Source: an uncultured Candidatus Saccharibacteria bacterium (GTDB lineage: Bacteria > Patescibacteriota > Dojkabacteria > SC72). From it: a stretch of DNA of 40,194 bases. Position 1 is the first letter of the stretch. Every line of letters starts with the position of its first letter. Below the pieces are notes generated by a model that searched no databases, had not been told where the DNA came from, and worked only from the letters and a program-made list of their open reading frames with translations. The translations under genes and the position numbers were made by a program. The stretch covers positions 1 to 40,194 of the forward strand of contig CAZOFW010000002.1 of assembly GCA_964579365.1 (NCBI GenBank), in the 5' to 3' direction. Of the stretch, positions 885-16,194 are shown piece after piece.

Positions 885-961
885 GCTGGATTAGCTCAGT
901 TGGTTAGAGCACATTCATGGTAAGAATGAGGTCCTGAGTTCGACTCTCAGATCCAGCTCCA
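885..961 (+). tRNA. tRNA-Thr (anticodon GGT), CCA encoded
   Basis: Cloverleaf read by hand: acceptor GCTGGAT/ATCCAGC, D-arm GCTC-AGTTGGTTA-GAGC, anticodon arm CATTC-ATGGTAA-GAATG, T-arm CTGAG-TTCGACT-CTCAG, then T-CCA. Confidence 0.9.
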
Positions 962-1624
962 TTACCTCTTCCTCTTTTTCATATATCCCTTTATTAGAAA
1001 TCCGAAAAGGATACTTGTCCCAACCATAAAACCAACCCAAATCATTATCCCCATCTCACTTTGAAAATCCATTTTCTTAAAAACCAAATATGACAAGAAG
1101 TGTGTTACAAAACTTGTTATTGTAGTAATCAAAAAATAGCTTTTGAAAGAGATGTTTGTTAAACCTGCTGCATAAGAGATAAATTCAAACGCAGAAAAGC
1201 CCAAAAGTCTTGCGCCTATCAAAGCCTTTTCCCCTTGTAAAGACGTAAAACTATCAACCTCCTCCATCGCTTTTTGTCCAACAAGCTTGGTTACGAGTCT
1301 TCTTCCATATTTACGACTTATATAGAAGTTTATGATTGCACTAACCAGGCTTGCAAGATAAAGGATTATCATTCCAACCTTTATTCCATATATCGTTACA
1401 CCCAGGAGTACTCCCGGTGTACCAGATAAAGGGGCGAAGATATGGGAAAGGACAGTATAGCCCATGACAATGAAATATCCACCTATTCCGACATTGGCTA
1501 CATAAGCTTTAAAAGTCTCAGAAAGAATTATGGGGACAAGAAAGAGTTTCAGAAGTACATACAAAAGGACAATAACTGCCACGAGTTCAAATATTACGAT
1601 CCACTCCTTTTTTCTAAATTGCAT
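962..1624 (-). CDS. TVP38/TMEM64-type (DedA-related, VTT domain) membrane protein
   Basis: 220-aa ORF with 5-6 hydrophobic helices. The segment HIFAPLSGTPGVLLGVTIYG...INFYISRKYGRRLV resembles the VTT/SNARE-associated core. The stop codon abuts the tRNA-Thr 3' end. Confidence 0.6.
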   Translation of the reverse strand: MQFRKKEWIVIFELVAVIVLLYVLLKLFLVPIILSETFKAYVANVGIGGYFIVMGYTVLSHIFAPLSGTPGVLLGVTIYGIKVGMIILYLASLVSAIINFYISRKYGRRLVTKLVGQKAMEEVDSFTSLQGEKALIGARLLGFSAFEFISYAAGLTNISFKSYFLITTITSFVTHFLSYLVFKKMDFQSEMGIMIWVGFMVGTSILFGFLIKGYMKKRKR

Positions 1625-1705
1625 ATTGATGTTGTATATATTTCTCTACCAAGGGATGTATATGTTAAACATTTTATACACCCCTTGGTGCTACAGAGAA
1701 AACGG

Positions 1706-1927
1706 TTAATCATTTCCTATTCCAGTGAATAACTCTCTCCAAAAAGACTCTCGACGCATTTTTCTTACCTCTCTTTCTGCCCATCCTTCTTCTCTTTTTC
1801 TCTTTTGACTTTCAAAAAAGTCAAGAACAGAGCAGAATACCAGAAGTATTGCAAAAAGAATTACAAAACAACACGCAAGAACCACATCTATAAAAGAATT
1901 CCATACTTTTTTCATTTCCTCTCCCAT
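1706..1927 (-). CDS. hypothetical small membrane protein
   Basis: 73-aa ORF with one hydrophobic helix (VVLACCFVILFAILLVFCSVL) and a charged C-terminus. No family recognised. Confidence 0.4.
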   Translation of the reverse strand: MGEEMKKVWNSFIDVVLACCFVILFAILLVFCSVLDFFESQKRKREEGWAEREVRKMRRESFWRELFTGIGND

Positions 1928-1968
1928 TCTCTGTATAAAAAGAGCTAGATTCCATTATATCAAACTAT

Positions 1969-1997
1969 TTGACCTTACCCATAATTTCCCATATAAT
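1969..1997 (+). promoter_or_regulatory. sigma70-type promoter candidate for rpmG-tRNATrp-secE-nusG-rplKA
   Basis: TTGACC (1969-1974), a 17-nt spacer, then TATAAT (1992-1997), about 50 nt upstream of the rpmG ATG. Confidence 0.55.
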
Positions 1998-2047
1998 ACG
2001 CAGTATATTTCCCAATATAGCATCTTTAATTTTGATTTCCGAGGGAT

Positions 2048-2212
2048 ATGGCAAAAGTAAAAAGAGATATCATAGCTTTGAAATGTACAGTATGTAATGA
2101 AAAAAACTATACAGAGTATAAAACTAAGAATATTAAGGAAAAACTTGAATTAAAAAAGTATTGCTCTAAGTGCCAAAAGCACACAGACCACAAAGAAACT
2201 AAGGTTAAATAA
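2048..2212 (+). CDS. rpmG: 50S ribosomal protein L33
   Basis: 54-aa ORF absent from the supplied track because it is too short. Translation is MAKVKRDIIALKCTVCNEKNYTEYKTKNIKEKLELKKYCSKCQKHTDHKETKVK. It has the CxxC...CxxC zinc ribbon and the KET tail typical of L33, and sits in the canonical position before tRNA-Trp/secE. Confidence 0.9.
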   Translation: MAKVKRDIIALKCTVCNEKNYTEYKTKNIKEKLELKKYCSKCQKHTDHKETKVK

Positions 2213-2231
2213 TAGCTCTTTAATTAACTAG

Positions 2232-2308
2232 GGGCCCATAGTTTCAACTGGTTAAAACCGCGGTCTCCAAAACCGCTATTCCCTGTTCGAATCAGGGTGG
2301 GCCTGCCA
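2232..2308 (+). tRNA. tRNA-Trp (anticodon CCA), CCA end encoded
   Basis: Acceptor GGGCCCA/TGGGCCT (G1-U72 wobble), D-arm GTTT-CAACTGGTTA-AAAC, anticodon arm GCGGT-CTCCAAA-ACCGC, T-arm CCCTG-TTCGAAT-CAGGG, then G-CCA. Confidence 0.88.
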
Positions 2309-2323
2309 AATATATATACAAAA

Positions 2324-2497
2324 ATGAAAATACTAAAAAATATATTAATAGAACTAAAGAAAAGTAAGTGGCCAAAAGGCAAAGAATTGTTGGTTCTTTC
2401 AATATATGCTCTAGTATTATGTGGTATAATCACCGCGTTAATATTAGGTTTAGATCTTGTCTTTTACAAAGCAAGAGAGTGGTTTTTAAATCTTTAA
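2324..2497 (+). CDS. secE: preprotein translocase subunit SecE
   Basis: 57 aa counted from the in-frame ATG at 2324; the track start at 2297 would overlap the tRNA-Trp. It has the KKSKWP motif, a single C-terminal TM helix, and lies immediately upstream of nusG. Confidence 0.85.
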   Translation: MKILKNILIELKKSKWPKGKELLVLSIYALVLCGIITALILGLDLVFYKAREWFLNL

Positions 2498-2507
2498 TTA
2501 AGAAAAT

Positions 2508-3065
2508 ATGACCAAAGAAGAAGTTAAAACAAAAGAAAATCCAAATGCAAAGTGGTATGTTCTGAATATTAGGACTGGATACGAAAACAGTATTCAAAAA
2601 GAACTTAAGCAGAGGATTGAAGCAACAGGAATGGAAGACAAGATTGTAGATATACTTGTACCTGTACAGAAGAAGATCTTTGTTAAAAAAGGTAAACAGG
2701 ATGTAAAAGAGGAGAAGATATTCCCTGGATATGTCCTCATAAAGATGGAACTGGATAACAGTACATGGGATTTGGTAAAAAATACTGAGGGTGTAAGAGG
2801 TTTTGTTAAGACAGACAGATACCCAAGACCCCTACCACAGTCAGAGGTAACAGCAATTACAAAGTTCATGGAAGTTGAACAACCATCATTCCAGAATTCA
2901 TTTAGTGTTGGTGAAGCAGTAAAGATTGTAGATGGTGCATTTGCAGACTTCATTGGAAGTGTTCAGGATGTAGATACTGAAAAGGGTAAGATTAAAGTCC
3001 TCATATCTTTCCTTGGTAGAGAAGCTCCTGTTGAATTAGATCTAACACAAGTAAGTAAACTTTAG
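2508..3065 (+). CDS. nusG: transcription termination/antitermination factor NusG
   Basis: 185 aa. The NGN domain shows KWYVLNIRTGYEN...FPGYVLIKM...GVRGFV and the C-terminal KOW motif shows VGEAVKIVDGAFADFIGSV. secE-nusG-rplK synteny is conserved. Confidence 0.95.
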   Translation: MTKEEVKTKENPNAKWYVLNIRTGYENSIQKELKQRIEATGMEDKIVDILVPVQKKIFVKKGKQDVKEEKIFPGYVLIKMELDNSTWDLVKNTEGVRGFVKTDRYPRPLPQSEVTAITKFMEVEQPSFQNSFSVGEAVKIVDGAFADFIGSVQDVDTEKGKIKVLISFLGREAPVELDLTQVSKL

Positions 3066-3079
3066 TTAAATATATACAT

Positions 3080-3505
3080 ATGGCAAAAATAATTAAAAAG
3101 ATAATCAAGATAACAATACCTGCAGGTGGTGCAACAATGGCTCCTCCAATTGGACCAACCTTAGCTCCTTACGGTATCAATGCACAGGATTTCTGTGCCC
3201 AGTTTAATGAGAAGACAAGAGAGAGCAATGGTATCCTTACACCAGTAATATTAACAATCTACGAGGACAGATCCTTTGGATTTGAACTTAAGACTCCTCC
3301 TACATCCGAACTAATCAGAAGAGAGCTTAAGATTAAGGCTGGTTCTGCAAAACCAAACCTTGAGAAGGTTGGAAAGCTTTCCAAAGAACAACTAATGAAA
3401 ATAGTAGAGGTAAAAATGCCAGACTTGAATACATCAGACCCAGATAAAGCAGCAAAGATCGTTGCAGGTACTGCAAAACAGATGGGTGTAGAGGTAGAAC
3501 TTTAA
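3080..3505 (+). CDS. rplK: 50S ribosomal protein L11
   Basis: 141 aa with IKITIPAGGATMAPPIGPTLAPYGINAQDFCAQFN, which is diagnostic for L11. Confidence 0.97.
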   Translation: MAKIIKKIIKITIPAGGATMAPPIGPTLAPYGINAQDFCAQFNEKTRESNGILTPVILTIYEDRSFGFELKTPPTSELIRRELKIKAGSAKPNLEKVGKLSKEQLMKIVEVKMPDLNTSDPDKAAKIVAGTAKQMGVEVEL

Positions 3506-3524
3506 TTATACATATAACACAGCT

Positions 3525-4214
3525 ATGAAAAGAGGAAAGAAATATACAAAAAGTGTAAAAGGACTAGACAAGAGTATTGAATATACCTTAGTAGATGGAG
3601 TTAAGAAAGTTAAAACACTCTCCTACTCTTCCTTCACAGGTACACTTGAAATGCATGTAGATATTAAAATACCTAAGGACAGAGATCCAAAATCCATAAA
3701 GGGTGCTGTTTCTCTTCCACATTCTTCTACCAAAAAAGAAGTTAAGATCGCTGTATTTTGTACTCCAGATAAGGATGCTTTGGCTTCAAAGGCTGGTGCA
3801 GATTTTGTAGGTTTAGAAGATTTAGTAAAAGATATTAAGGCTGGAAAGGTTGAATTTGATGTTGCAATTGCTACTCCAGATGTAATGGCAAAGATTGCAA
3901 TTTTAGGTAAAGAGCTTGGTCCTAAGGGATTAATGCCAAGTCCTAAGAATGGAACAGTTACAAACGATCTAGAGGGTGCAATTGGTGAATACAAGAAGGG
4001 TAAGCAGACATTCGCATGTGATGATTCCGGAGTTATACATTTAAATGTAGGTAAACTAGATTTAGAGGATGAGAAATTAATAGAGAATATCAATGTTGCA
4101 GTAGTAGCATTAGAAGAGATATTTGGAAAACCATATGATCAGATTGCAGACAGAATGCATATAGCACCAACAATGGGAGCTAGTGTTAAGATAGCCTACA
4201 CTAAACCAGAATAA
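3525..4214 (+). CDS. rplA: 50S ribosomal protein L1
   Basis: 229 aa with MAKIAILGKELGPKGLMPSPKNGTVT, typical of L1. It follows rplK. Confidence 0.96.
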   Translation: MKRGKKYTKSVKGLDKSIEYTLVDGVKKVKTLSYSSFTGTLEMHVDIKIPKDRDPKSIKGAVSLPHSSTKKEVKIAVFCTPDKDALASKAGADFVGLEDLVKDIKAGKVEFDVAIATPDVMAKIAILGKELGPKGLMPSPKNGTVTNDLEGAIGEYKKGKQTFACDDSGVIHLNVGKLDLEDEKLIENINVAVVALEEIFGKPYDQIADRMHIAPTMGASVKIAYTKPE

Positions 4215-4234
4215 CCATATTACATTGTAATTAG

Positions 4235-4259
4235 AAAGACCTCGTAAGAGGTCTTTTTT
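4235..4259 (+). terminator. rho-independent terminator after rplA
   Basis: 9-bp stem AAAGACCTC / GAGGTCTTT with GTAA loop, running into a T tract ending at 4259. Confidence 0.75.
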
Positions 4260-4272
4260 GTTATATATACTC

Positions 4273-4301
4273 TTTACAACACATACTCTATGGGATAGAA
4301 T
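4273..4301 (+). promoter_or_regulatory. promoter candidate (TTTACA-N17-TAGAAT)
   Basis: TTTACA at 4273-4278, a 17-nt spacer, TAGAAT at 4296-4301. The same hexamer pair recurs at 4836-4864. Confidence 0.45.
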
Positions 4302-4303
4302 AT

Positions 4304-4708
4304 ATGTCGTTGCTCTTTAGGGTAAAAAGACAAAAGAAAGGGTCTGAAAAGATGAAATCACGGGAAGGAACGCTGTTAAGAATAGAAGCAAGAACATTAG
4401 TGGTAAAGGGAGATTATCTGGATCTACTTGTCTTACAAGGAGAAGATCATAGACTAATCTTCTATTTCGAGAAAATTGGTCTTGAAGCACGATGTGAGAG
4501 TAAAAGTAAAAATTTCTCCCGCTATGTAGCATACGAGAGAGGAGATAATACTTTTTCGTTCAATGGCAAACCCTTTGATGTGATTGGTTATGAAAGCTTG
4601 GGAAACAATTCTCTTGTCTTAAAAACTAGACTTTTAAACTATAAGTTTGCTTTTAGGATTGATACTAAGAACAAGAGACTCCTAAGTGTCGACATACTAA
4701 TCAACTAA
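4304..4708 (+). CDS. hypothetical protein (orphan; true start may be the ATG at 4352)
   Basis: 134-aa ORF with no recognisable motif. The ATG at 4304 lies only 3 nt after the putative -10 hexamer. If that promoter is used, the internal Met (MKSREGTLL..., 118 aa) is the likelier start. Confidence 0.45.
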   Translation: MSLLFRVKRQKKGSEKMKSREGTLLRIEARTLVVKGDYLDLLVLQGEDHRLIFYFEKIGLEARCESKSKNFSRYVAYERGDNTFSFNGKPFDVIGYESLGNNSLVLKTRLLNYKFAFRIDTKNKRLLSVDILIN

Positions 4709-6583: not shown

Positions 6584-6616
6584 AAAAGAGCCACGAAAGT
6601 GGCTCTTTTTGTTTTT
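6584..6616 (+). terminator. rho-independent terminator after rplL
   Basis: 11-bp stem AAAAGAGCCAC / GTGGCTCTTTT with GAAA loop, followed by TGTTTTT. Confidence 0.8.
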
Positions 6617-6681: not shown

Positions 6682-6993
6682 CTAAATCCGTGAGAGAAGC
6701 TCTTCAATATGGAAACACCTCTCTATAATCTTTCTTACTTTCTTGATCAGATCAATAGAGAGCGTAGCCTCTTTTTGACTAATTATGATAGAGTCTTCGT
6801 TAATCGCAATATCTTTCAAACATTCACAAAGGTCCAATTCATCTAGTATGAACTTTGTAATTGCTGGTATTTCTATTCCAATCTCCTCCCCCTCTTCGAG
6901 AGCATCGAGACTGCACCCTTCTAATAGGCAACGATTAACCTTGAAATACAGAAACTCACTATCTTCTTTCAGCAAGATCTTAAGCTCTGCCAT
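6682..6993 (-). CDS. hypothetical small acidic protein
   Basis: 103-aa ORF rich in Glu/Asp/Leu/Ile with five Cys. It is divergently oriented from the ATP-grasp operon across a 156-nt AT-rich spacer. No family recognised. Confidence 0.5.
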   Translation of the reverse strand: MAELKILLKEDSEFLYFKVNRCLLEGCSLDALEEGEEIGIEIPAITKFILDELDLCECLKDIAINEDSIIISQKEATLSIDLIKKVRKIIERCFHIEELLSRI

Positions 6994-7078: not shown

Positions 7079-7108
7079 TCGACAAATATATATCCAAAGA
7101 AGTATAAT
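7079..7108 (+). promoter_or_regulatory. promoter candidate for the 7TM/ATP-grasp operon
   Basis: TCGACA (7079-7084), an 18-nt spacer, TATAAT (7103-7108), 41 nt upstream of the ATG at 7150. Confidence 0.45.
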
Positions 7109-7149: not shown

Positions 7150-7818
7150 ATGGACTACACACCTTTTACTAAATGGGTACTGGATAATGGTATTGCTGAA
7201 CAAACCTTGGGATTACTTGTAGGAATAGCAATTATCGCTACAATTGTAAGCCTAGCTAGATACCTTGTAGGATCAAAGTCCTTTGGGATATATGTCCCAA
7301 TAATACTAGCTGTAGCATACACATATACAGGACTTAGATATGGGCTGATCATAACAGCAGTAGTCATAGCATCCTCCCTACTCTCTTTCCTCATCCTTAG
7401 CAGAATTAGAATGCACTACATATCTAGAATGGCAATTAATTACTGCCTCATCATAATGTCTTTAATTGTTTTCTTTGTAGTTGTTAAAAAATACAACCTA
7501 GGATTACCAAATATGTCCCTCATACAGCCATTGGCAATAATCTCCATAATCGCACTTTCCGACTTCTTCGCTAAACAACAGATTAAAAAAGGATTCAAAA
7601 CAACTATGTTAGTACTTGGAAGTACCATCATAATTGCCTCTCTCGGATGGTTCTTAATTACTAGAGAAGCTGTATCTGCCTTCATGGTTAACAATCTCTG
7701 GCTAATACCAGCCCTCATTGTAGTAAACATCCTTATCGGACAATTCTCAGGACTTAGATTTAAAGATCTTTTGAGATTTAGAACCATTATCCAAGAAAAA
7801 GAAAATGTCAAAAAGTAG
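7150..7818 (+). CDS. seven-transmembrane protein, resembling the 7TM module usually fused to an inactive transglutaminase (7TM_transglut-like)
   Basis: 222 aa with seven hydrophobic segments counted by eye: LGLLVGIAIIATIVSL; FGIYVPIILAVAYTY; YGLIITAVVIASSLLSFLIL; MAINYCLIIMSLIVFFVVV; IQPLAIISIIALSDFF; TMLVLGSTIIIASLGWFLI; LWLIPALIVVNILIGQF. It overlaps the next gene by 14 nt. The family call rests on the GxKxFGxYxP-like motif plus the known association with alpha-L-glutamate-ligase-like ATP-grasp genes. Confidence 0.6.
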   Translation: MDYTPFTKWVLDNGIAEQTLGLLVGIAIIATIVSLARYLVGSKSFGIYVPIILAVAYTYTGLRYGLIITAVVIASSLLSFLILSRIRMHYISRMAINYCLIIMSLIVFFVVVKKYNLGLPNMSLIQPLAIISIIALSDFFAKQQIKKGFKTTMLVLGSTIIIASLGWFLITREAVSAFMVNNLWLIPALIVVNILIGQFSGLRFKDLLRFRTIIQEKENVKK

Positions 7819-9265
7819 GAAGATAAAAGAAATACTGGGATTAAACAGACGAAACCAAGAGTATGTTCGTCCATTAAACCCACCATCTGCAAAAAGAATT
7901 GCAGATAACAAAATTCTCACAAAAAAGATATTGGCAAGGGAAAGAATTAAAACACCAGAGGTATATAAGCTTGTAAAGACAAAAAAACAGTTACAATTCC
8001 TAGATTTTGAATCCCTACCAAACAGTTTTGTCATAAAACCAAACCAAGGTACAGGGGGAAACGGTATTGTTGTACTCTACGGTAAAAAGAAAGGCCAAAC
8101 AGCCTGGATAAGACCAAGTGGAGAAATAATGACTGCAAGAGACATAACACTGCATATTGAGAACATTTTAGATGGTAGGTACTCCATGGGCTCTAGAAAA
8201 GACATCGCGATCATAGAGGAGAGAGTCAAAACAGATCCCTTTCTCAAGCAATATTCATACAAAGGAGTCCCTGACATTAGAATAATCGGATACAACCAAG
8301 TCCCCATAATGGCCATGATGAGACTACCAACGAAGAAGTCCAATGGTACCGCAAATTTGCACTCTGGAGCTATCTGTACCGGTATAGATATTAGTTCTGG
8401 TATAACCACCTACTCTATGCATATGCAGGATAGAAGCATAATGAGTGACTCCTACGAAATGATAGATTCAACTCTAGATCTTAAAGAGAACAAAAAACTT
8501 GGTGGTATTCAAGTACCATACTGGGACGAAATTTTAGAAATAGCTGTAAAGTGCCAAAGAGCAAGTAAACTAGGATACATTGGCGTAGATATAGCCTTAG
8601 ATGCAGAGAAAGGACCTGTTGTCTTTGAACTAAACGCAAGACCAGGACTTGGTATCCAGGTAGCAAATCAAGCAGGACTTAGATGGAGGCTGGAGAAAGT
8701 AAAGGGAATTGAGATAAAGAGTATAAATCATGGTATCCGAGTAGCAAAAAATCTCTTCGGGGGAGAGGTCGAAGAAAGCATCGAGGCAATTAGTGGAAGA
8801 AAAGTTGTGAACATTAACGAAAAAGTCCTCCTCTACTATAAGACACCCGTTTCTAAGAAGAAAAATGACCCTCAAAATCGTGAAGCCATAAGAGTATTCG
8901 TAGATACAGGATTAATAACCTCCCGTATAAACAAAACCCTCGCTTCTAGGATAGGATTTTTTGAAGCAATAGAGTACTTCTACTCTCTTTCCATACCAAA
9001 GAAGTTTGAAAGCTTCAAAGAGGGTCAAGAATACATAGATTCTAACCAATCCACCATTATAGGTCACCCAGACATCCTTAGAGTCGCAAAAATTGTAGAA
9101 GAAGGAGCAATAAAGATAAGACCTGTCATACATGTACATACCAAAATAGCTAGTGAAGAAAAAGATATTGAAATGGTTATCACCGAAGATACCACATATA
9201 ATGTAGTAATCGGAAGAAACGAACTCAAAGGATACTTAATAGATACATCTAAAACATTTACATAG
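7805..9265 (+). CDS. alpha-L-glutamate ligase-like ATP-grasp enzyme fused to a C-terminal retropepsin-like (DUF785 / 'ATP-dependent zinc protease') domain
   Basis: 486 aa. The N-terminal ~330 aa carry LGLNRRNQEYVRPLNPPSAKRIADNKILTKKIL, FVIKPNQGTGGNGIVVL, GVPDIRIIGY..PIMAMMRLPTKKSNGTANLHSGAI and LGYIGVDIALD...GPVVFELNARPGLGIQVAN. These match my memory of the RimK-related alpha-L-glutamate-ligase-like family. The C-terminal ~150 aa (nt ~8807-9262) carry VFVDTGLITS (D-T-G) and IRPVIHV....EMVITED..YNVVIGRNELKGYLIDTSKTF, matching the DUF785 pattern. Confidence 0.8.
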   Translation: MSKSRKIKEILGLNRRNQEYVRPLNPPSAKRIADNKILTKKILARERIKTPEVYKLVKTKKQLQFLDFESLPNSFVIKPNQGTGGNGIVVLYGKKKGQTAWIRPSGEIMTARDITLHIENILDGRYSMGSRKDIAIIEERVKTDPFLKQYSYKGVPDIRIIGYNQVPIMAMMRLPTKKSNGTANLHSGAICTGIDISSGITTYSMHMQDRSIMSDSYEMIDSTLDLKENKKLGGIQVPYWDEILEIAVKCQRASKLGYIGVDIALDAEKGPVVFELNARPGLGIQVANQAGLRWRLEKVKGIEIKSINHGIRVAKNLFGGEVEESIEAISGRKVVNINEKVLLYYKTPVSKKKNDPQNREAIRVFVDTGLITSRINKTLASRIGFFEAIEYFYSLSIPKKFESFKEGQEYIDSNQSTIIGHPDILRVAKIVEEGAIKIRPVIHVHTKIASEEKDIEMVITEDTTYNVVIGRNELKGYLIDTSKTFT

Positions 9266-9266
9266 T

Positions 9267-10259
9267 ATGAAAAAATACGAAGAATATTTAAAAGAGGCAG
9301 GAAATGTTCATTTGGCTTACTACATAGAAGCTGCAGATGAACTTGGAATCGACTACGAAATAGTTGTTCGCAGCCTTCTTGCTAGATTTACATACCAAAA
9401 CAAACACTGGTTCATAATCAATACCGTTACTCCACTTACTCCTTCTCCAGGAACTACCATTGCTAAAAGAAAATACCTTACAAACCTTGTACTGAGCATG
9501 GCAGATATAGATGTTCCAAAACAACAGCCACTTGGAAGTGCAATAGATGCAATAAAGTTCTTCAATAAATACAAGAACATCGTCATAAAACCCTCCCAGC
9601 AACTCGGCGGAATTGGAATAACTATGCTACCAGAGACAGAAGATCAGGTAATTGAAGCATACGAGAATGCATTACACAAAAGTAATGCAAAGGGAGCAGT
9701 AAAGGTGTTAGGTGAAGAGTTCATAAAGGGCGAAAATTACAGATTCCTAGTAGTGGGAGAAGAGGTTGTAGGAATAGTATGGAGAAAAGCCCCAGTAGTT
9801 ATCGGTAATAGCAAAAACACTATAAGGGAGCTAATCGAAATTAAAAACAAAGAGCGCAGAATGCTTGTTCTAAAACCAATTCCCATAGACACAGAGGTAG
9901 ATATAAGACTAAAAAGTCAAAATCTAACCCTCGACTCTGTCCCTAAGGATGGAGAAGAAATTGTTCTAAGATATAATTGCAATCTAACAACAGGAGGAAC
10001 TACAGAAGAATGCTCCGACATAGTAGATCCGTACTACAAGAAGCTTGCAGTCCAAGCAGTAAAAGAACTAGATCTTGAACTCGGAGGCGTAGATATAATT
10101 GCAGAAGACATTACTAAACAAGATAAATGTGGAATTAATGAGATAAACTACAACCCAGGTCTTAGATTGCATTACAAAGTAAACAAAGGACAAGTTGTAA
10201 GAGTAGCCATACCAATAATGGAATATATCCGAGATAAATACATAAATTCAGTTAAATAA
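9267..10259 (+). CDS. ATP-grasp ligase, cyanophycin-synthetase G-domain-like (stand-alone)
   Basis: 330 aa with IVIKPSQQLGGIGITML, GENYRFLVVGEEVVGIVWRKAPVVIGNSKNTIRELIEIKNKERR, LDSVPKDGEEIVLRYNCNLTTGGTTEE, LGGVDIIAEDITK and INEINYNPGLRLH. These parallel CphA's DHRVLVV..VVAVAERVPAHVIG.G..T..ELIE..N, L.SV...G....LR..ANLSTGG and VN..PGFRMH. Confidence 0.8.
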   Translation: MKKYEEYLKEAGNVHLAYYIEAADELGIDYEIVVRSLLARFTYQNKHWFIINTVTPLTPSPGTTIAKRKYLTNLVLSMADIDVPKQQPLGSAIDAIKFFNKYKNIVIKPSQQLGGIGITMLPETEDQVIEAYENALHKSNAKGAVKVLGEEFIKGENYRFLVVGEEVVGIVWRKAPVVIGNSKNTIRELIEIKNKERRMLVLKPIPIDTEVDIRLKSQNLTLDSVPKDGEEIVLRYNCNLTTGGTTEECSDIVDPYYKKLAVQAVKELDLELGGVDIIAEDITKQDKCGINEINYNPGLRLHYKVNKGQVVRVAIPIMEYIRDKYINSVK

Positions 10260-10261
10260 AA

Positions 10262-11932
10262 ATGGTAAAAGTACTTCAAGGATTGAATTTAGAAAATGAA
10301 ATCTCTTCAATTGAGATACATGTAAAGAAAACAGTAGATTTAGAAAAGATAATCAAGCTAATACACTCCTTCCACCCCATATTCATCAAAGAATATAAAT
10401 TTACCGAAGATACACTAAAGATCTATACCAATATACCATCGCTTTGGGAAGAACTTGGTAGTGTATTAGAGAGAAATTTGCCATACAAAGAAACTCTAGA
10501 TAAATGTTTAGAGATAATAAGAATAAGGGTCTCGTCAATGTCCACCATACCCCTACTCTTTGCAGCGCATAAGCTTGGATACGAGACAACCCCAACAATG
10601 GCCACTGAACAATCCCTTACATACACACCATCCTTTAATCGTCACTACACAGTAGGTTGTGGTAAAGGTTCCGAGATAATCTACTCAATCTCTTCTTCTC
10701 AAGATTCTAAGATTGCAAAAGAAATCCAAAGAGATAAATGGTCAAGTAATCTAGTAATTCAAAAACTTGGATTACCACTCCCCTCATGGGAGATCATAGA
10801 TTCATTTACAGAAATAGAAAATGTCTGGAAACATTTTGAAAAACCAGTTGTAATTAAACCAACAGGACTTACTGGTGGAAGTGGAGTTTCAGTTGGTATA
10901 AATACCATTGAAGAAGCTAAAGAAGCATACAAATATGCCAAAGAAATGATAGACAGTAAGCTTAGAAAAGATTGGCAGACCAAAGTAATGATGCAGGAAC
11001 AGGTAAGTGGAGAAGATTACAGGCTCCTAGTTATAGATGGCCATTTAGAAGTCGTAACAAAAAGAATCCCTGCATTTGTAATTGGAAATGGTAAAGACAC
11101 AATAGCAAAGCTCATAGAAGATACTAACAAAGATCCTAAGAGAGACATTACCAGTCCTGCACACACATTAAAACCAATTGAAATAGACCAACCATTGAAA
11201 GCATATCTTAAAGCACAAGGCTTAGATCTAAGCTCAATACCACAAAAAGAGCAGAAAATAGCAGTAAGAAAAGTCGCAAGTATGAGCCAAGGCGGTATAA
11301 CAGAAGACTTTACAGACAAAGTAGGACCAGAGATTAAAAGCATCGTAGAAAGTATAGCAACATCAATCCATGCATTCGCTCTTGGAGTTGATATAATGTG
11401 CAAAGATATCTCCAAACCTCTTACTACAGACAATGGAGCTATCCTTGAGATTAACACTATGCCAGAGGCATATCTCAACCTCTTCCCTGTAATTGGAATA
11501 GACAGAGGCTACGTTGCAGATACTTATATTAAAAAACTACTTGTAAACAACAAAACAAAAAAGATTGTTGTAATTGGTCATCCCCAATATGATATCCCTA
11601 CCACACTTAAACAGAAAAATATGTTCTCCTCCTACTTAAAAAAGGAAGATGTGGTCGGAGAATACAAAGACGGAGAGATCAGAATAAATTCACTAGCATT
11701 GAATAAAGATCTAACCAAAAAGCAGGGTGTAGAAGCACTTAAACTTAATGCCTCTCTTGATGCAATCATAATCCATCATCGAAATTGGGAAGAAGTAGCA
11801 AAAGATGGCCTTGGATTAAATAAAATAAACCTCCTAATGATAGAAACTTCCTTGAAAGAGAATAAAGATTGTATGAAAGTCATAAATAAATACAAACGAA
11901 AAGGATTAATATCTAAAATAAAGACATTCTGA
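10262..11932 (+). CDS. cyanophycin-synthetase-like protein: N-terminal domain plus ATP-grasp G domain, lacking a functional Mur-ligase (M) domain
   Basis: 556 aa with VVIKPTGLTGGSGVSVGI, GEDYRLLVIDGHLEVVTKRIPAFVIGNGKDTIAKLIEDTNKDPKR, LSSIPQKEQKIAVRKVASMSQGGITED, ALGVDIMCKDISKPL and GAILEINTMPEA. In the C-terminal ~130 aa, KKIVVIGHPQYD sits where CphA has its ILSVTGTNGKTT P-loop, and no P-loop is present. The gene ends in TGA. Confidence 0.8.
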   Translation: MVKVLQGLNLENEISSIEIHVKKTVDLEKIIKLIHSFHPIFIKEYKFTEDTLKIYTNIPSLWEELGSVLERNLPYKETLDKCLEIIRIRVSSMSTIPLLFAAHKLGYETTPTMATEQSLTYTPSFNRHYTVGCGKGSEIIYSISSSQDSKIAKEIQRDKWSSNLVIQKLGLPLPSWEIIDSFTEIENVWKHFEKPVVIKPTGLTGGSGVSVGINTIEEAKEAYKYAKEMIDSKLRKDWQTKVMMQEQVSGEDYRLLVIDGHLEVVTKRIPAFVIGNGKDTIAKLIEDTNKDPKRDITSPAHTLKPIEIDQPLKAYLKAQGLDLSSIPQKEQKIAVRKVASMSQGGITEDFTDKVGPEIKSIVESIATSIHAFALGVDIMCKDISKPLTTDNGAILEINTMPEAYLNLFPVIGIDRGYVADTYIKKLLVNNKTKKIVVIGHPQYDIPTTLKQKNMFSSYLKKEDVVGEYKDGEIRINSLALNKDLTKKQGVEALKLNASLDAIIIHHRNWEEVAKDGLGLNKINLLMIETSLKENKDCMKVINKYKRKGLISKIKTF

Positions 11933-11934
11933 CA

Positions 11935-12873
11935 ATGAAATACCTTGTAATAGACAAACGACCAAGAGTAAAACAGATGGAAATACCTACAGCTTCTGTT
12001 AGGATATTAGAGGAGTTAAAAAAGAAGGATATACCAACAGATTTTGTTTACAACGATGAAATAGAAATTCTTTTCACAGAGGGTTCCACACAAATTAAAG
12101 CTAAAGGGATAGATGTGAAGGAGTATACACACATCATTTTTAGAGGTCATGCACTTCACAACGACAGGCAGTATGCGCTTAAGAGATACATCATAGATTA
12201 CATTGAGCAACATAACAGTGACAACCCAGAAAAAAAAGTGCTCGTTCAAAATTCCAAAGCAATTAAGAAATTGCCATATTACAATAAGGTAGCCATTTCT
12301 TTGCTATGTTCACAATATAACCTCCCCTACTTTCAGACATATTACAGAACAGATGGTAAATATCTAGAACCCAGAGATATGTTAAAAGAATATCCATTAA
12401 TCATAAAAGAGTATGCTGGTATCAATAGAGTTGAGATAATTGACGGCGAAGAGAAGATTAAAAAGAATGTTTACAAAATAGAAAAAGACGAGGATTTTGA
12501 ACAAGAGGGATTAAAAGGTCAGAATCTAGGGGATTTCTTTCTTCAAGAATTCTCAGATACTGCCGAAGATTACAGAGTTTTTGTTAAACTAGGTAAAGTA
12601 ATTGGTGGATGGAAAAGAAGTGCATCTAAAGGCTTTATGACTGTGAATAAGGGAATATATGAGATGTACAATGAACCAGACCAAGAGATGAAAGAGATAG
12701 CAGAGAAAATGGCAAGTATTCTAGAAGCTGATTTCATAGCTGTAGATTTTATGTATATGAATGGTAAACCCTGTATACAGGAGATAAGCCTACATCCAGG
12801 ATTTAAAGCCTACGAAACAAAGATAAAGGGAACACCTGTTAATATAGCAGAAGCTATAATAACTGCATTCTAG
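11935..12873 (+). CDS. RimK-like ATP-grasp ligase
   Basis: 312 aa. DYRVFVKLGKVIGGWKRSASKGFMTVNKGIYE...IAEKMASILEADFIAVDFMYMNGKPCIQEISLHPGFKAYE aligns by eye with the RimK pattern DIRCFVVG..VVAA..R.A..G.FRSN.H.GG...A...A......AGVD.L....GP.V.EVN.SPG. Confidence 0.75.
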   Translation: MKYLVIDKRPRVKQMEIPTASVRILEELKKKDIPTDFVYNDEIEILFTEGSTQIKAKGIDVKEYTHIIFRGHALHNDRQYALKRYIIDYIEQHNSDNPEKKVLVQNSKAIKKLPYYNKVAISLLCSQYNLPYFQTYYRTDGKYLEPRDMLKEYPLIIKEYAGINRVEIIDGEEKIKKNVYKIEKDEDFEQEGLKGQNLGDFFLQEFSDTAEDYRVFVKLGKVIGGWKRSASKGFMTVNKGIYEMYNEPDQEMKEIAEKMASILEADFIAVDFMYMNGKPCIQEISLHPGFKAYETKIKGTPVNIAEAIITAF

Positions 12874-12944
12874 CCTCCTGTTGATGGACCGCCTATTGTC
12901 CCTGGACCACCATCCGTATCAGGACCAAAGTTAATATTCTTCAT
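12870..12944 (-). CDS. candidate small ORF (24 aa, Gly/Pro-rich): MKNINFGPDTDGGPGTIGGPSTGG
   Basis: Found by hand translation; it is too short for the supplied track. The ATG at 12944 is preceded by AGGA with a 7-nt spacing. Its TAG stop (12872-12870) interlocks with the TAG stop of the last ATP-grasp gene in the palindrome CTAG. The stretch is conspicuously GC-rich within an AT-rich spacer, 30 nt downstream of and co-directional with the MATCAP-like gene. Confidence 0.3.
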   Translation of the reverse strand: MKNINFGPDTDGGPGTIGGPSTGG

Positions 12945-12974
12945 AAATATATCCTACAATAAAATATATTCTTT

Positions 12975-14138
12975 TTAAATCCCTGCTTTCTTAAATATCT
13001 CCAACCAATCGTTCTTGGTTGGAATCTTACCTGCTTTTGGAATTAATCCCTCCTCTACCCACTCACACTGTTTGAAAGTAATCTTTCCAGAGTAAAGTTT
13101 CTGGTACAAAGTAGGATCCTCCTCCAATTTCTTCATAACCTTCCTAAATCCTCTGAAGTAAACAACATCCTTTGCGTAAATACCTGGATAAGATGTATCT
13201 GAAAGACCTCTTTTAACTCTATATGCTATATCAAAAGCCCCTGGTTTAGAAAAACTACCAAGAAGTACGTTGTAAAGCTGTCTAAAAGACAACTCCTCTC
13301 CAACATATATGGCCCATGTTAAAGCTGCTTTGTTTCTTAGAGATTTCACTGGGAGAAGCCCCATATTATTCTCATTCCAAGAAGCTAACCCCTCCTCAAT
13401 ATCTAAATATCCTGGTAAGTTTGGTTTACTTATTGCTTCAAAACCACTCATAAGACCATAATGAGAACGCAAAGCATGTGTTCCTACCTCATGGATTATT
13501 GTCTTTCTCAGTTGAAGTTTACTTTTACTAATATTTCCATCAACCAAAACCTCTTTTCTCTTTACACCAACCTTTACTCCGTTCTTAGCAATATTCAATG
13601 ACTTATTTACAGACCAATCTTCGAGTCCTAACTCCTTAAAGACAACATCAAAAGCAGAAACAATCTTGTCATACCCCAACATCTCTGGATCTTTTATATT
13701 ATCCTCTTTTGCTAAATTGTACTTACCATATTTACCCCTCAAAACTCTTGATGCATTCCTAAAAAGTTTTGCAGATGGTTTGCTATACCTTGCTACAGAG
13801 ATATCTGTAACAGCTTCATTATTCCCTACCGCATGCATAAGGTCACTAGCTTCTCTTTTAGAATCTATTAGGTCAATGTAGAAATCTGAGATCCTTGGAT
13901 CTACATCTGGGATTTCCTTTACCTCAGAAAGTCTTTTTAATATCTGCTCATTATTGTTACTAACTACTCTGTATTGGAATTGAGGCTCATATGTGTCTGA
14001 GTCAAAGAACTTTTTCTTCTCTGAATCTAGGTTTGTTGGTGTAAATACTAAGGCAATTGGAATTTTAAGTTCCCCCAAAAGCTTTGTTACTTCCTCTACT
14101 TTCATTGTTTTCTTAGCTTTTCTGAAGAATATGTTCAT
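12975..14138 (-). CDS. DUF1704 / MATCAP-family metallocarboxypeptidase-like protein (HExxxH ... EGLA)
   Basis: 387 aa. It has TIIHEVGTHALRSHYG (HExxxH), a nearby LDIEEGLASWNE (the QEGLA-motif position), and downstream YAKDVVYFRG and LYSGKI. These match my recollection of the DUF1704 'QEGLA motif protein' / MATCAP fold family. Confidence 0.75.
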   Translation of the reverse strand: MNIFFRKAKKTMKVEEVTKLLGELKIPIALVFTPTNLDSEKKKFFDSDTYEPQFQYRVVSNNNEQILKRLSEVKEIPDVDPRISDFYIDLIDSKREASDLMHAVGNNEAVTDISVARYSKPSAKLFRNASRVLRGKYGKYNLAKEDNIKDPEMLGYDKIVSAFDVVFKELGLEDWSVNKSLNIAKNGVKVGVKRKEVLVDGNISKSKLQLRKTIIHEVGTHALRSHYGLMSGFEAISKPNLPGYLDIEEGLASWNENNMGLLPVKSLRNKAALTWAIYVGEELSFRQLYNVLLGSFSKPGAFDIAYRVKRGLSDTSYPGIYAKDVVYFRGFRKVMKKLEEDPTLYQKLYSGKITFKQCEWVEEGLIPKAGKIPTKNDWLEIFKKAGI

Positions 14139-15213: not shown

Positions 15214-16194
15214 TTAGAAACCCATAGCTGCCAGGACCTTTTCTTCCGTTTCAGAAGCTACTTTTCGAGCTCTTTCCTCTCCCTTCTCCAAAATCTTAAT
15301 CAAATAGTCATCTCCTAAACTTTCTACCTCTGCTCTTTTGTCCCTAATGGGAATCAAGAATGCCTCAATAGCATCGAATAATTTTGTTTTAACTTCTACA
15401 TCTCCAACAGTACCTTTTTGATATCTTTCTTTGAGTATTCGAACCTCTTCTGTATTCGGATTGAAATAATCGTGATAAATAAAAACTGGATTTCCTTCAA
15501 CCTTTCCAGGATCATTCGGATGAATTCTCCCTGGATCTGTATACATCGACATAACTTTTTTTCTTACAGTCTCTGTATCATCTGTGAAGTAAATCCCACC
15601 TGTTGATTTTCCACTCTTACCTTGGCCATCTAGCCCAACAACAATATCGCCTATCAATCCTTTTGGGATATTGAAGACATCCCCATATATCGAGTTAAAC
15701 TTGAGAGCTAAGTCTTTGGCCATTTCGACATGTGCTTCGTTATCTTTACCAACTGGAACCAAGTCAGAATTCATTATCAAAATATCGGAAGCCATTAACA
15801 CTGGATATCCCATAAGACCATATGTCAATTTATACCCTAATGCCAACTTCTCTTTTAGCATTGGTTGCCTTTCTAATTCGGGCATCTTCGTCAACATAGA
15901 CAGTATTACATGTAATCTAAAAATCTGCGGTATTCTCGATTGTCTATAGAAAGTAACACTTTCTGGTTTCAACCCCAAACTCAAATAAGTCTTCAACAAA
16001 CCCAATGTATTTTCTTTTATCTGCGAGACATTCTCTGAATGTGTCGTTAATGCATGATAATCCGCAATAAAGATAAAACTCTCATATTCATCTTGCCTCT
16101 CTATTCTGTTTTTCAGAGTGCCTATATAAGCCGCGATTGGAAATGTTGCTCCCGTGGCCCTATCACCTGTTAAAATTCTTTTCTTTTCATTCAT
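15214..16194 (-). CDS. trpS: tryptophan--tRNA ligase (divergent signature motifs)
   Basis: 326 aa with FIFIADYHALTT, YPVLMASDILIMNSDLVPVGKDNEAHVEMAKDLALKFN, and a C-terminal helical domain ending ...KVLAAMGF. The HIGH position reads PIAA (Bacillus stearothermophilus has TIGN) and KMSKS reads KSGKS. Confidence 0.85.
   Translation of the reverse strand: MNEKKRILTGDRATGATFPIAAYIGTLKNRIERQDEYESFIFIADYHALTTHSENVSQIKENTLGLLKTYLSLGLKPESVTFYRQSRIPQIFRLHVILSMLTKMPELERQPMLKEKLALGYKLTYGLMGYPVLMASDILIMNSDLVPVGKDNEAHVEMAKDLALKFNSIYGDVFNIPKGLIGDIVVGLDGQGKSGKSTGGIYFTDDTETVRKKVMSMYTDPGRIHPNDPGKVEGNPVFIYHDYFNPNTEEVRILKERYQKGTVGDVEVKTKLFDAIEAFLIPIRDKRAEVESLGDDYLIKILEKGEERARKVASETEEKVLAAMGF

Follow-up and report, generated by a model that had tools for sequence, protein, structure and literature searches.

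Two adjacent genes in a 40,194-nucleotide stretch of DNA (contig CAZOFW010000002.1, positions 1 to 40,194; here, the window) encode relatives of cyanophycin synthetases (CphA), textbook non-ribosomal amino-acid polymerases that are of industrial interest. The Dojkabacteria genome from which the window comes, as contig 2, measures 581 kb and is 92% complete; the named relatives are Candidatus Dojkabacteria (WS6), which belong to the Patescibacteria, or candidate phyla radiation (CPR). The two open reading frames (ORFs) that an initial annotation had singled out were recovered as described: positions 9267 to 10259 encode a protein of 330 amino acids, designated G330, and positions 10262 to 11932 encode a protein of 556 amino acids, designated G556. 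The initial annotation had viewed this pair in isolation. However, both genes belong to a fixed six-gene cluster of ligases and peptidases that resembles the Rlo system of Pseudomonas aeruginosa, and it is chiefly this setting, with several ligases side by side, that points to the function of the two proteins. The features of the cluster are as follows.

7079..7108, + strand: promoter-like site TCGACA-18-TATAAT (11 of 12 positions), about 40 nucleotides (nt) upstream of the first gene of the operon
7150..7818, + strand: RloB-like seven-transmembrane (7TM) membrane protein, 222 amino acids (Pfam 7TM_transglut, PF14402; E value, 5e-16)
7805..9265, + strand: RloC-like ATP-grasp ligase (ATPgrasp_ST/TIGR02291) with a retropepsin-like C-terminal domain, 486 amino acids (Pfam PF14397; E value, 1e-68)
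9267..10259, + strand: G330, stand-alone CphA/GshF-type ATP-grasp protein with a G-omega insert, 330 amino acids (profile and fold matches)
10262..10651, + strand: N domain of G556, amino acids 1 to about 130 (CphA2-like; whole-length fold match to 7ta5)
10652..11551, + strand: G domain of G556, amino acids about 131 to 430 (ATP-grasp catalytic set intact; unique substrate-site signature S340/S342/E402/Y404/N406)
11552..11932, + strand: vestigial M-domain stub of G556, amino acids about 431 to 556 (homology to the Mur-ligase-like core over its first ~100 residues)
11935..12873, + strand: RimK-like ATP-grasp ligase, 312 amino acids, final gene of the operon (Pfam RimK; E value, 3.6e-8)
12975..14138, - strand: MATCAP/DUF1704 (QEGLA-family) metallopeptidase, 387 amino acids, convergent with the operon (Pfam MATCAP; E value, 2.6e-25)

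The five forward-strand genes abut or overlap one another, with an overlap of 14 nt between the 7TM gene and the RloC-like gene, and no terminator-like sites were found on the forward strand from 7150 to 12873. The terminator of rplL is located at 6584-6609. The 7TM protein covers only positions 311 to 507 of the 508 positions of the NCBIfam RloB model, and the inactive transglutaminase domain is missing. The RloC-like protein has a DTG motif at amino acids 367 to 369, where weak Asp_protease matches were detected. The assignment of this domain as retropepsin-like is supported by a homologue from another patescibacterial genome (L021), which aligns with the RloC-like protein through residue 483 and carries the Pfam domain Zn_protease (PF05618; E value, 3e-9). 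The RimK-like ligase matched the NCBIfam model rimK_fam with an E value of 2e-14, under the family cut-off, and the match of the MATCAP-like peptidase, which has HEVGTH at amino acids 216 to 221, to TIGR02421 (E value, 2.4e-33) was likewise under the cut-off.

Fold, ancestry and active sites of the two CphA-like proteins

Both proteins matched the NCBIfam cyanophycin synthetase model TIGR02068 over its ATP-grasp (G) domain only (G330: E value, 1.3e-58, model positions 165 to 470; G556: E value, 1.9e-68, model positions 182 to 482). The top sequence matches in the PDB were CphA1 (7wac, 7lg5, 7lgm, and 7lgn) and CphA2 (8fxh and 7ta5), and the weaker profile matches of both proteins were to GshAB and N-acetylglutaminylglutamine synthetase (E values for the latter, 2e-37 and 2e-31). 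The motif blocks quoted in the initial annotation were all found in the translations (EDYRLLVIDGHLEVVTKRIPAFVIGNGKDTIAKLIEDTNKD, LSSIPQKEQKIAVRKVASMSQGG, LGVDIMCKDISK, EINTMP, and KKIVVIGHPQYD in G556; ENYRFLVVGEEVVGIVWRKAPVVIGNSKNTIRELIEIKNKE, LDSVPKDGEEIVLRYNCNLTTGG, GGVDIIAEDITK, and EINYNP in G330), except that G330 reads NYR rather than DYR. At the level of sequence, the similarity of both proteins to CphA is far above chance. Affinity to the Ddl or GshB ligases was checked; models of these families gave E values of 1e-5 to 1e-11, compared to 1e-58 to 1e-70 for CphA, and Ddl folds ranked far beneath CphA folds for both protein models. G330 and G556 are 32% identical. Neither is closer to the other than it is to CphA, the two belong to different clades, and the possibility that they are recent duplicates was rejected.

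There was no match to a Mur_ligase Pfam domain in either protein, and neither contains a GxxGK[ST] P-loop. A careful alignment for a hidden Mur P-loop found none in either protein; K499 of the CphA1 designated TeCphA1 corresponds to Pro446 of G556 (HMMER). Both are CphA-type ATP-grasp proteins without a functional arginine-adding M domain, as had been claimed. The description of G330 as essentially a G domain alone was also accurate, as the chain does not extend past this domain. The predicted structure of G330 (predicted local distance difference test [pLDDT] score, 84.5) resembled the G domains of CphA1 and CphA2 with a template modeling (TM) score of 0.77 and a root mean square deviation of 3.5 Å. 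However, its top Foldseek match was the ATP-grasp module of GshF (3ln6; E value, 3e-24), which was about equal with CphA1 (7lgj; E value, 2e-22).

An AlphaFold model of G556, built from 52 orthologues (pLDDT, 91.8; predicted TM score [pTM], 0.90), had as its top PDB fold match the CphA2 of Gloeothece citriformis (7ta5; E value, 8.5e-42; TM scores, 0.71/0.68). The alignment of about 597 columns extended from end to end; CphA1 structures ranked next, and GshF matched on the G part only. The predicted fold thus backs the proposal of an N terminus the size of a CphA N domain, of which the first 98 residues were not picked up by profile-profile comparison. The initial annotation had also interpreted the C-terminal stub of G556 as an M-domain remnant that had lost its P-loop. 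This interpretation was borne out when the G556 family profile was compared with 23 CphA1-size proteins in hhalign (probability, 100; E value, 2e-63). Residues 99 to 539 of G556 were paired with residues 159 to 576 of CphA1, a region that takes in GLGFD, a motif of the Mur-like core. In the HMMER alignment, G....DIPT stands in place of the CphA1 P-loop TGTNGKT. Twelve columns of the stub are invariant among the 52 orthologues.

The layout of an N domain, a G domain and a dead M stub is not new. The characterised precedent is CphA2, in which the N domain is accompanied by a G domain that is active and an M domain that is truncated and inactive (10.1101/2023.04.15.537035). The metallopeptidase motif Cx19HxxEH, defined in the N domain of CphA1 (PMC9262961), is absent from G556, as it is from CphA2. 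CphA2 (7ta5 and the Stanieria sp. structures 8fxh/8fxi) further resembles G556 in its non-catalytic N domain, the G-omega of its active G domain, an aromatic residue at position 458 (TeCphA1 numbering) and an RKVA motif ahead of the large loop. In contrast, CphA2 is longer (629 to 642 versus 556 amino acids), is cyanobacterial, and has AGHKGIG rather than TGLTGGSG as the P-loop of its G domain, whereas G556 is found in Dojkabacteria without a CphA1 or cyanophycinase partner, is embedded in a multi-ligase, Rlo-like cluster, and has Ser, Glu and Asn in place of N394, G456 and H460.

GshF/GshAB (3ln6 and 3ln7) has the same ATP-grasp subtype with a G-omega insert as G330, and the large loop of G330 (LRYNCNLTTGG) resembles that of GshF (LRxNSNISTGG). 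However, the module of GshF is fused C-terminally to a GshA domain, whereas G330 is stand-alone and G556 has a CphA-type N domain. G330 has the CphA-type motif PGLRLH rather than PMMMMH, and the Tyr/Phe in the P-loop of GshF is Gly in both G330 and G556.

Phylogenies of the G domains were constructed from the 150 best representatives found in a search of 1.84 billion proteins, together with PDB anchors, G330 orthologues and CPR paralogues, with FastTree and with IQ-TREE (LG+C20; Shimodaira-Hasegawa-like approximate likelihood ratio test [SH-aLRT]), and were rooted on GshF. Neither protein grouped with Ddl or GshB; neither such a grouping nor a Mur P-loop, either of which would have refuted the initial annotation, was seen. 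The G556 clade (support, 100), which includes an orthologue of 35% identity from a different family in the class, nests in a 46-tip clade (SH-aLRT, 95). Its other members are both CphA2 anchors and about 29 uncharacterised proteins, non-cyanobacterial ones included, mostly of ~570 to 670 amino acids. This clade is sister to the clade with all four CphA1 anchors (joint support, 92). Since G556 nests inside the CphA radiation, its descent from a full CphA-type enzyme, which had been proposed from the vestigial stub, is reasonable. For G330, which probably has a separate origin, descent from CphA is not supported. Its family (support, 100) falls outside the crown of CphA1 and CphA2, with G-like ligases of CPR bacteria that are likewise stand-alone, and in fold the GshF module is equally near.

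Several further relatives were noted. Within a group of ~600-amino-acid proteins sister to G556, one gene (P0189) adjoins a second paralogue of 622 amino acids in a cluster (L027, 6570-10298) that also contains TauD, GNAT-BKACE and an AMP-binding/RimK fusion and resembles a natural-product pathway. A separate large clade among the representatives found in the protein search (P0139, P0142, P0133, P0134, P0137, and P0140) has two or three CphA-like G domains per chain. The typical form is G-G-acylphosphatase (~770 to 790 amino acids), and fusions to TPR, PGA_cap (CapA), AMP-binding or LPG_synthase_C domains also occur. CphA-like G domains in tandem therefore recur, in an architecture that is uncharacterised.

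Residues of 52 G556 orthologues, 48 G330 orthologues and 25 CphA1-size proteins were mapped onto TeCphA1 by hidden Markov model alignment. In the G domain of TeCphA1, ATP is bound by K220 and K261, Mg by D431 and E450, and the acceptor carboxylate by R309 (PMC9427784). The incoming Asp is bound by R323, N394 and R458 in a pocket formed by S396; G456 is at the oxyanion position, H267 is in the P-loop of the G domain, and E215 binds the Arg of the polymer. K220, K261, R309, R323, D431 and E450 have been named as essential (PMC9427784). All six, as well as N452, are invariant in the 52 G556 and 48 G330 orthologues. The G-domain fold and all of the catalytic residues of CphA1 (7wac, 7lg5, 7lgm, and 7lgn) are common to G330 and G556, and with these residues invariant, both proteins are probably catalytically competent.

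The residues N394, S396, G456, R458 and H460 were present in all 25 CphA1-size proteins. At these positions, N, T/S, G, R and H are found in the G330 family, and with R323 the CphA1 aspartate signature is complete. In comparison with CphA1, however, G330 has no N domain and no acidic, Arg-binding residue at position 215, and neither G330 nor G556 has a functional M domain, the HxxEH site of the N domain or His267, which is Gly in both. These residues suggest that G330 binds an Asp-like incoming substrate and a different acceptor than CphA1 does. The corresponding residues of the G556 clade are S, S, E, Y and N, invariant in the 52 orthologues. Asn394, the conserved Asn of the large loop, is near universal in CphA1, CphA2, GshF and the sister groups, whereas it is Ser in the G556 clade; Tyr or Phe at 458 is the CphA2 state. 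Position 215 is E in 28 of the 52 G556 orthologues and T, Q, K or N in the remainder. It is likely from this signature that G556 takes an incoming unit different from that of CphA1.

A conserved Rlo-like cluster

In 13 Dojkabacteria genomes, the order of the six genes was identical and the cluster was flanked by rplJL and mreB, with cluster protein identities of 52 to 94%, similar to those of ribosomal protein L10. Genes for both G330 and G556 were present in all 15 genomes of the same family. Each protein family has 55 to 77% identity across more than 100 clusters, all from Dojkabacteria where named, and both families are, to judge from their sequences, under purifying selection. No literature was found on cyanophycin in Dojkabacteria or on bacterial MATCAP with ATP-grasp proteins, and the Dojkabacteria G330 and G556 families are uncharacterised. 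The cluster takes up ~1.2% of the 0.58-Mb genome and is kept in every sampled member of the family; therefore, its product is probably of importance to the cells, which are ultra-small and likely symbiotic.

The association is not restricted to Dojkabacteria. ATPgrasp_ST was present as a single copy in 99 of 301 sampled Patescibacteria, and beyond the Dojkabacteria class, 45 genomes had CphA-like G genes, often two or three in tandem. The two genes were less than 10 kb apart in half of the other Patescibacteria that have both (17 of 34; binomial P value, 2e-17 at a chance expectation of 3%). In all six CPR cassettes that were inspected, a 7TM gene was followed by a gene for an ATPgrasp_ST-retropepsin protein and then by two to three genes for G-like ligases, with RimK-like, TTL/YheCD-like or MATCAP-like genes as extras. 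ATPgrasp_ST, the retropepsin-like Zn_protease domain and MATCAP are joined in a single 800-amino-acid protein at L021 (3474-5876, + strand), and the length of about 20 of the 99 patescibacterial ATPgrasp_ST open frames (750 to 844 amino acids) suggests the same triple fusion. The G-like paralogues in the cassettes vary at the pocket positions 215, 267, 456 and 458. This variation fits one specificity per ligase, with the ligases acting in succession, as linked peptide ligases generally do, often on small peptides (PMC4431377).

One Rlo-like cassette (L024) contains a full CphA-like protein of 891 amino acids (960-3635, + strand) with Mur_ligase_M/C and an intact TGTNGKTTT P-loop. It has Asp at positions 456 and 458 and is followed by a DUF3541 gene (3645-4622, + strand). 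Derivation of G556 from such full-length genes of other CPR cassettes was considered and is unsupported, as this protein falls outside the CphA crown.

The cluster in the window is an expanded form of the Rlo system. Like RloABC of P. aeruginosa (PMC11957051), it has an RloB-like protein, an RloC-like protein and a retropepsin-like protease domain. It differs in that the protease is fused to a cytosolic ligase rather than secreted, in that the 7TM protein has no transglutaminase-like domain, and in the addition of three more ligases and a MATCAP-like peptidase. In P. aeruginosa, the hypo-osmotic tolerance and cell-shape defects of rloA protease mutants are suppressed by deletion of rloB or rloC (PMC11957051).

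What the four ligases may make

On balance, we consider it probable that G330 and G556 are two of four ligases in a membrane-linked, Rlo-type build-and-trim pathway and do not function in cyanophycin synthesis. By analogy with the solved CphA mechanism, each enzyme would use ATP to phosphorylate the C-terminal carboxylate of an acceptor chain, to which the incoming amine would then be joined. G330, G556, the RloC-like ligase and the RimK-like ligase would act together with the 7TM protein, the retropepsin-like domain and the MATCAP-like peptidase; each ligase would contribute one particular residue as a peptide or poly-amino-acid chain, probably an acidic one, grows, and the peptidases would cut this chain back. 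The substrates, the sequence in which the enzymes act and the kind of acceptor are predictions in this scheme, which builds on the observed homology, architecture, intact catalytic residues, conservation and linkage. G330 would most likely add L-Asp or a close analogue, because the full aspartate-binding set of CphA1 is kept, to an acceptor without arginine side chains. G556, with an active G domain, an inert M stub and a remodelled incoming pocket, would probably add or polymerise a different unit.

The locus shows reuse of the CphA G domain and of the CphA2-type scaffold, with its dead M domain, outside cyanophycin metabolism, with remodelled pockets and high conservation. The CPR versions, with their fused ligase-peptidase and interchangeable ligases, offer reagents as well as residue-level predictions about the products of Rlo-type systems, such as an Asp ligase activity of G330.

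A number of points weigh against the build-and-trim pathway. The Asp prediction for G330 comes from five aligned positions, and G330 departs from CphA1 at positions 215 (Thr), 219 (Arg) and 267 (Gly). The Glu of G556 at the oxyanion position, Gly456, could harm catalysis, even if the contact there in CphA1 is made by the backbone. That the chain is acidic is suggested by the RimK-like and MATCAP-like partners, both of which scored under curated cut-offs, and the biochemistry of Rlo in Pseudomonas is itself unsolved (PMC11957051). The trees were built from 275 G-domain columns with SH-aLRT as the only measure of support and from a sample picked by similarity to G556, and the support for the exact sister of G556, including a direct sistership with CphA2, was just 36 to 67.

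A less probable alternative, which nevertheless deserves consideration, is that the ligases add Glu/Asp-type residues to the C-terminal tail that the 7TM protein has in the cytoplasm, or to that of some other protein (a ribosomal protein, for example), and that the MATCAP-like and retropepsin-like peptidases trim this tail. RimK/S6 or tubulin TTL/MATCAP would then have a bacterial counterpart here. The RimK-like, TTL-like and MATCAP-like partners in these cassettes, the L021 polypeptide that joins a ligase and peptidases, and the 7TM gene, which invariably comes first and is coupled in translation to the ligase genes, are all consistent with tailing, and the 7TM protein of a divergent Dojkabacteria genome (L025, 3708-4394, + strand) has an encoded poly-Glu end (...SEEEEEEEREEE). 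However, the 7TM protein of the window ends in ...IIQEKENVKK and other CPR 7TM proteins end in basic residues, and thus an acidic tail is not general; a role of the 7TM tail as the primer is possible but not general either. Moreover, CphA-type G domains are known to work on free polymers or small peptides rather than on proteins. A more specific form of protein tailing, that a patescibacterial toolbox of CphA-, RimK- and TTL-like ligases and retropepsin and MATCAP enzymes writes and erases a non-ribosomal, lineage-specific cytoplasmic tail on the RloB-like 7TM protein, seems unlikely. Were it correct, bacteria would have an equivalent of the tubulin tyrosination/glutamylation code, in which G330 would add Asp and G556 a second unit, while lineages such as that of L025 would have hard-wired the poly-Glu part.

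It is also doubtful that the four ligases build a defined, soluble peptide of two to four residues (a compatible solute or a thiol-like cofactor, for example), as Ngg does for N-acetylglutaminylglutamine amide (NAGGN) and GshF for glutathione, with the peptidases degrading the peptide on osmotic downshift. G330 resembles CphA and the ATP-grasp module of GshF to a like degree, both proteins match the N-acetylglutaminylglutamine synthetase model, the Rlo genes of Pseudomonas are linked to osmotic tolerance (PMC11957051), and successive action on small peptides is common for linked ligases (PMC4431377). However, the polymerase-type scaffold of G556, with its N domain and M stub, would be needless in a one-step ligase; two endo-/carboxypeptidase-type enzymes and a 7TM partner are atypical of solute pathways; and no GNAT or GshA partner is present.

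Canonical cyanophycin synthesis was rejected, as there is no M domain and there are no partner genes. The initial annotation had reached this conclusion from the loss of the M domain. That loss alone does not exclude cyanophycin, because CphA2 makes the polymer from beta-Asp-Arg (10.1101/2023.04.15.537035). The suppliers of this dipeptide to CphA2 are CphA1 and cyanophycinase, and genes for neither were found in the genome. Rather, cyanophycin is very unlikely because the partner genes are missing and the substrate residues are changed. No full CphA, Peptidase_S51 cyanophycinase or Asparaginase_2 isoaspartyl peptidase was found in the 92%-complete genome, which answers the initial annotation's call for a search for degradative enzymes, apart from IadA-type dipeptidases, which were not searched for. 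Salvage in the manner of CphA2, with G556 re-polymerising beta-Asp-Arg from a host or the environment, is highly improbable. G556 does share the layout of CphA2, its top fold match, falls in the CphA2-containing clade (SH-aLRT, 95), has the CphA2-state Tyr at 458, and is labelled cyanophycin synthetase by some annotation pipelines. Against this, N394, which is invariant in CphA1 and CphA2, is Ser in G556, with G456 changed to Glu and H460 to Asn; the Arg-binding acidic position 215 is unconserved in its clade; and its gene is fixed in a cluster alongside unrelated ligases, in a genome without CphA1, cyanophycinase or isoaspartyl peptidase. That one or both proteins are catalytically inert and serve as structural elements or regulators of the other ligases, as the dead but structurally retained M stub of G556, its Glu at the oxyanion-position Gly and the Gly in place of P-loop His267 might suggest, is hard to reconcile with the invariance in both families of the residues that bind ATP and Mg and stabilise the acyl phosphate and of the pocket residues, which argues for a retained, specific substrate.

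Other observations at the locus

An acidic ORF of 103 amino acids (6682-6993, - strand), between rplL and the operon, had only a weak match to DUF6304. It was rejected as a partner of the cluster; it is not conserved, and the gap between rplL and the 7TM gene is ~130 to 140 nt in relatives. Similarly, an ORF of 24 codons (12870-12944, - strand) is unlikely to encode a substrate peptide, as the spacing between the RimK-like and MATCAP genes is just ~2 to 10 nt in two relatives (L007 and L016).

In other Patescibacteria (L021, L022, L023, and L026), the Rlo-like cassette is located beside ruvC and yebC, and in L026 it is between ruvC and ruvA/ruvB, in comparison to the position between rplJL and mreB in Dojkabacteria; these flanking genes were recognised from N-terminal sequences only. 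The tryptophanyl-tRNA synthetase gene near mreB in the window (15214-16194, - strand) is 76 to 81% identical in L007 and L011. In L008, however, the corresponding synthetase (12515-13513) is ~41% identical to that of the window, whereas its neighbour genes are 85 to 97% identical, which suggests an in-place swap to a different type of tryptophanyl-tRNA synthetase.

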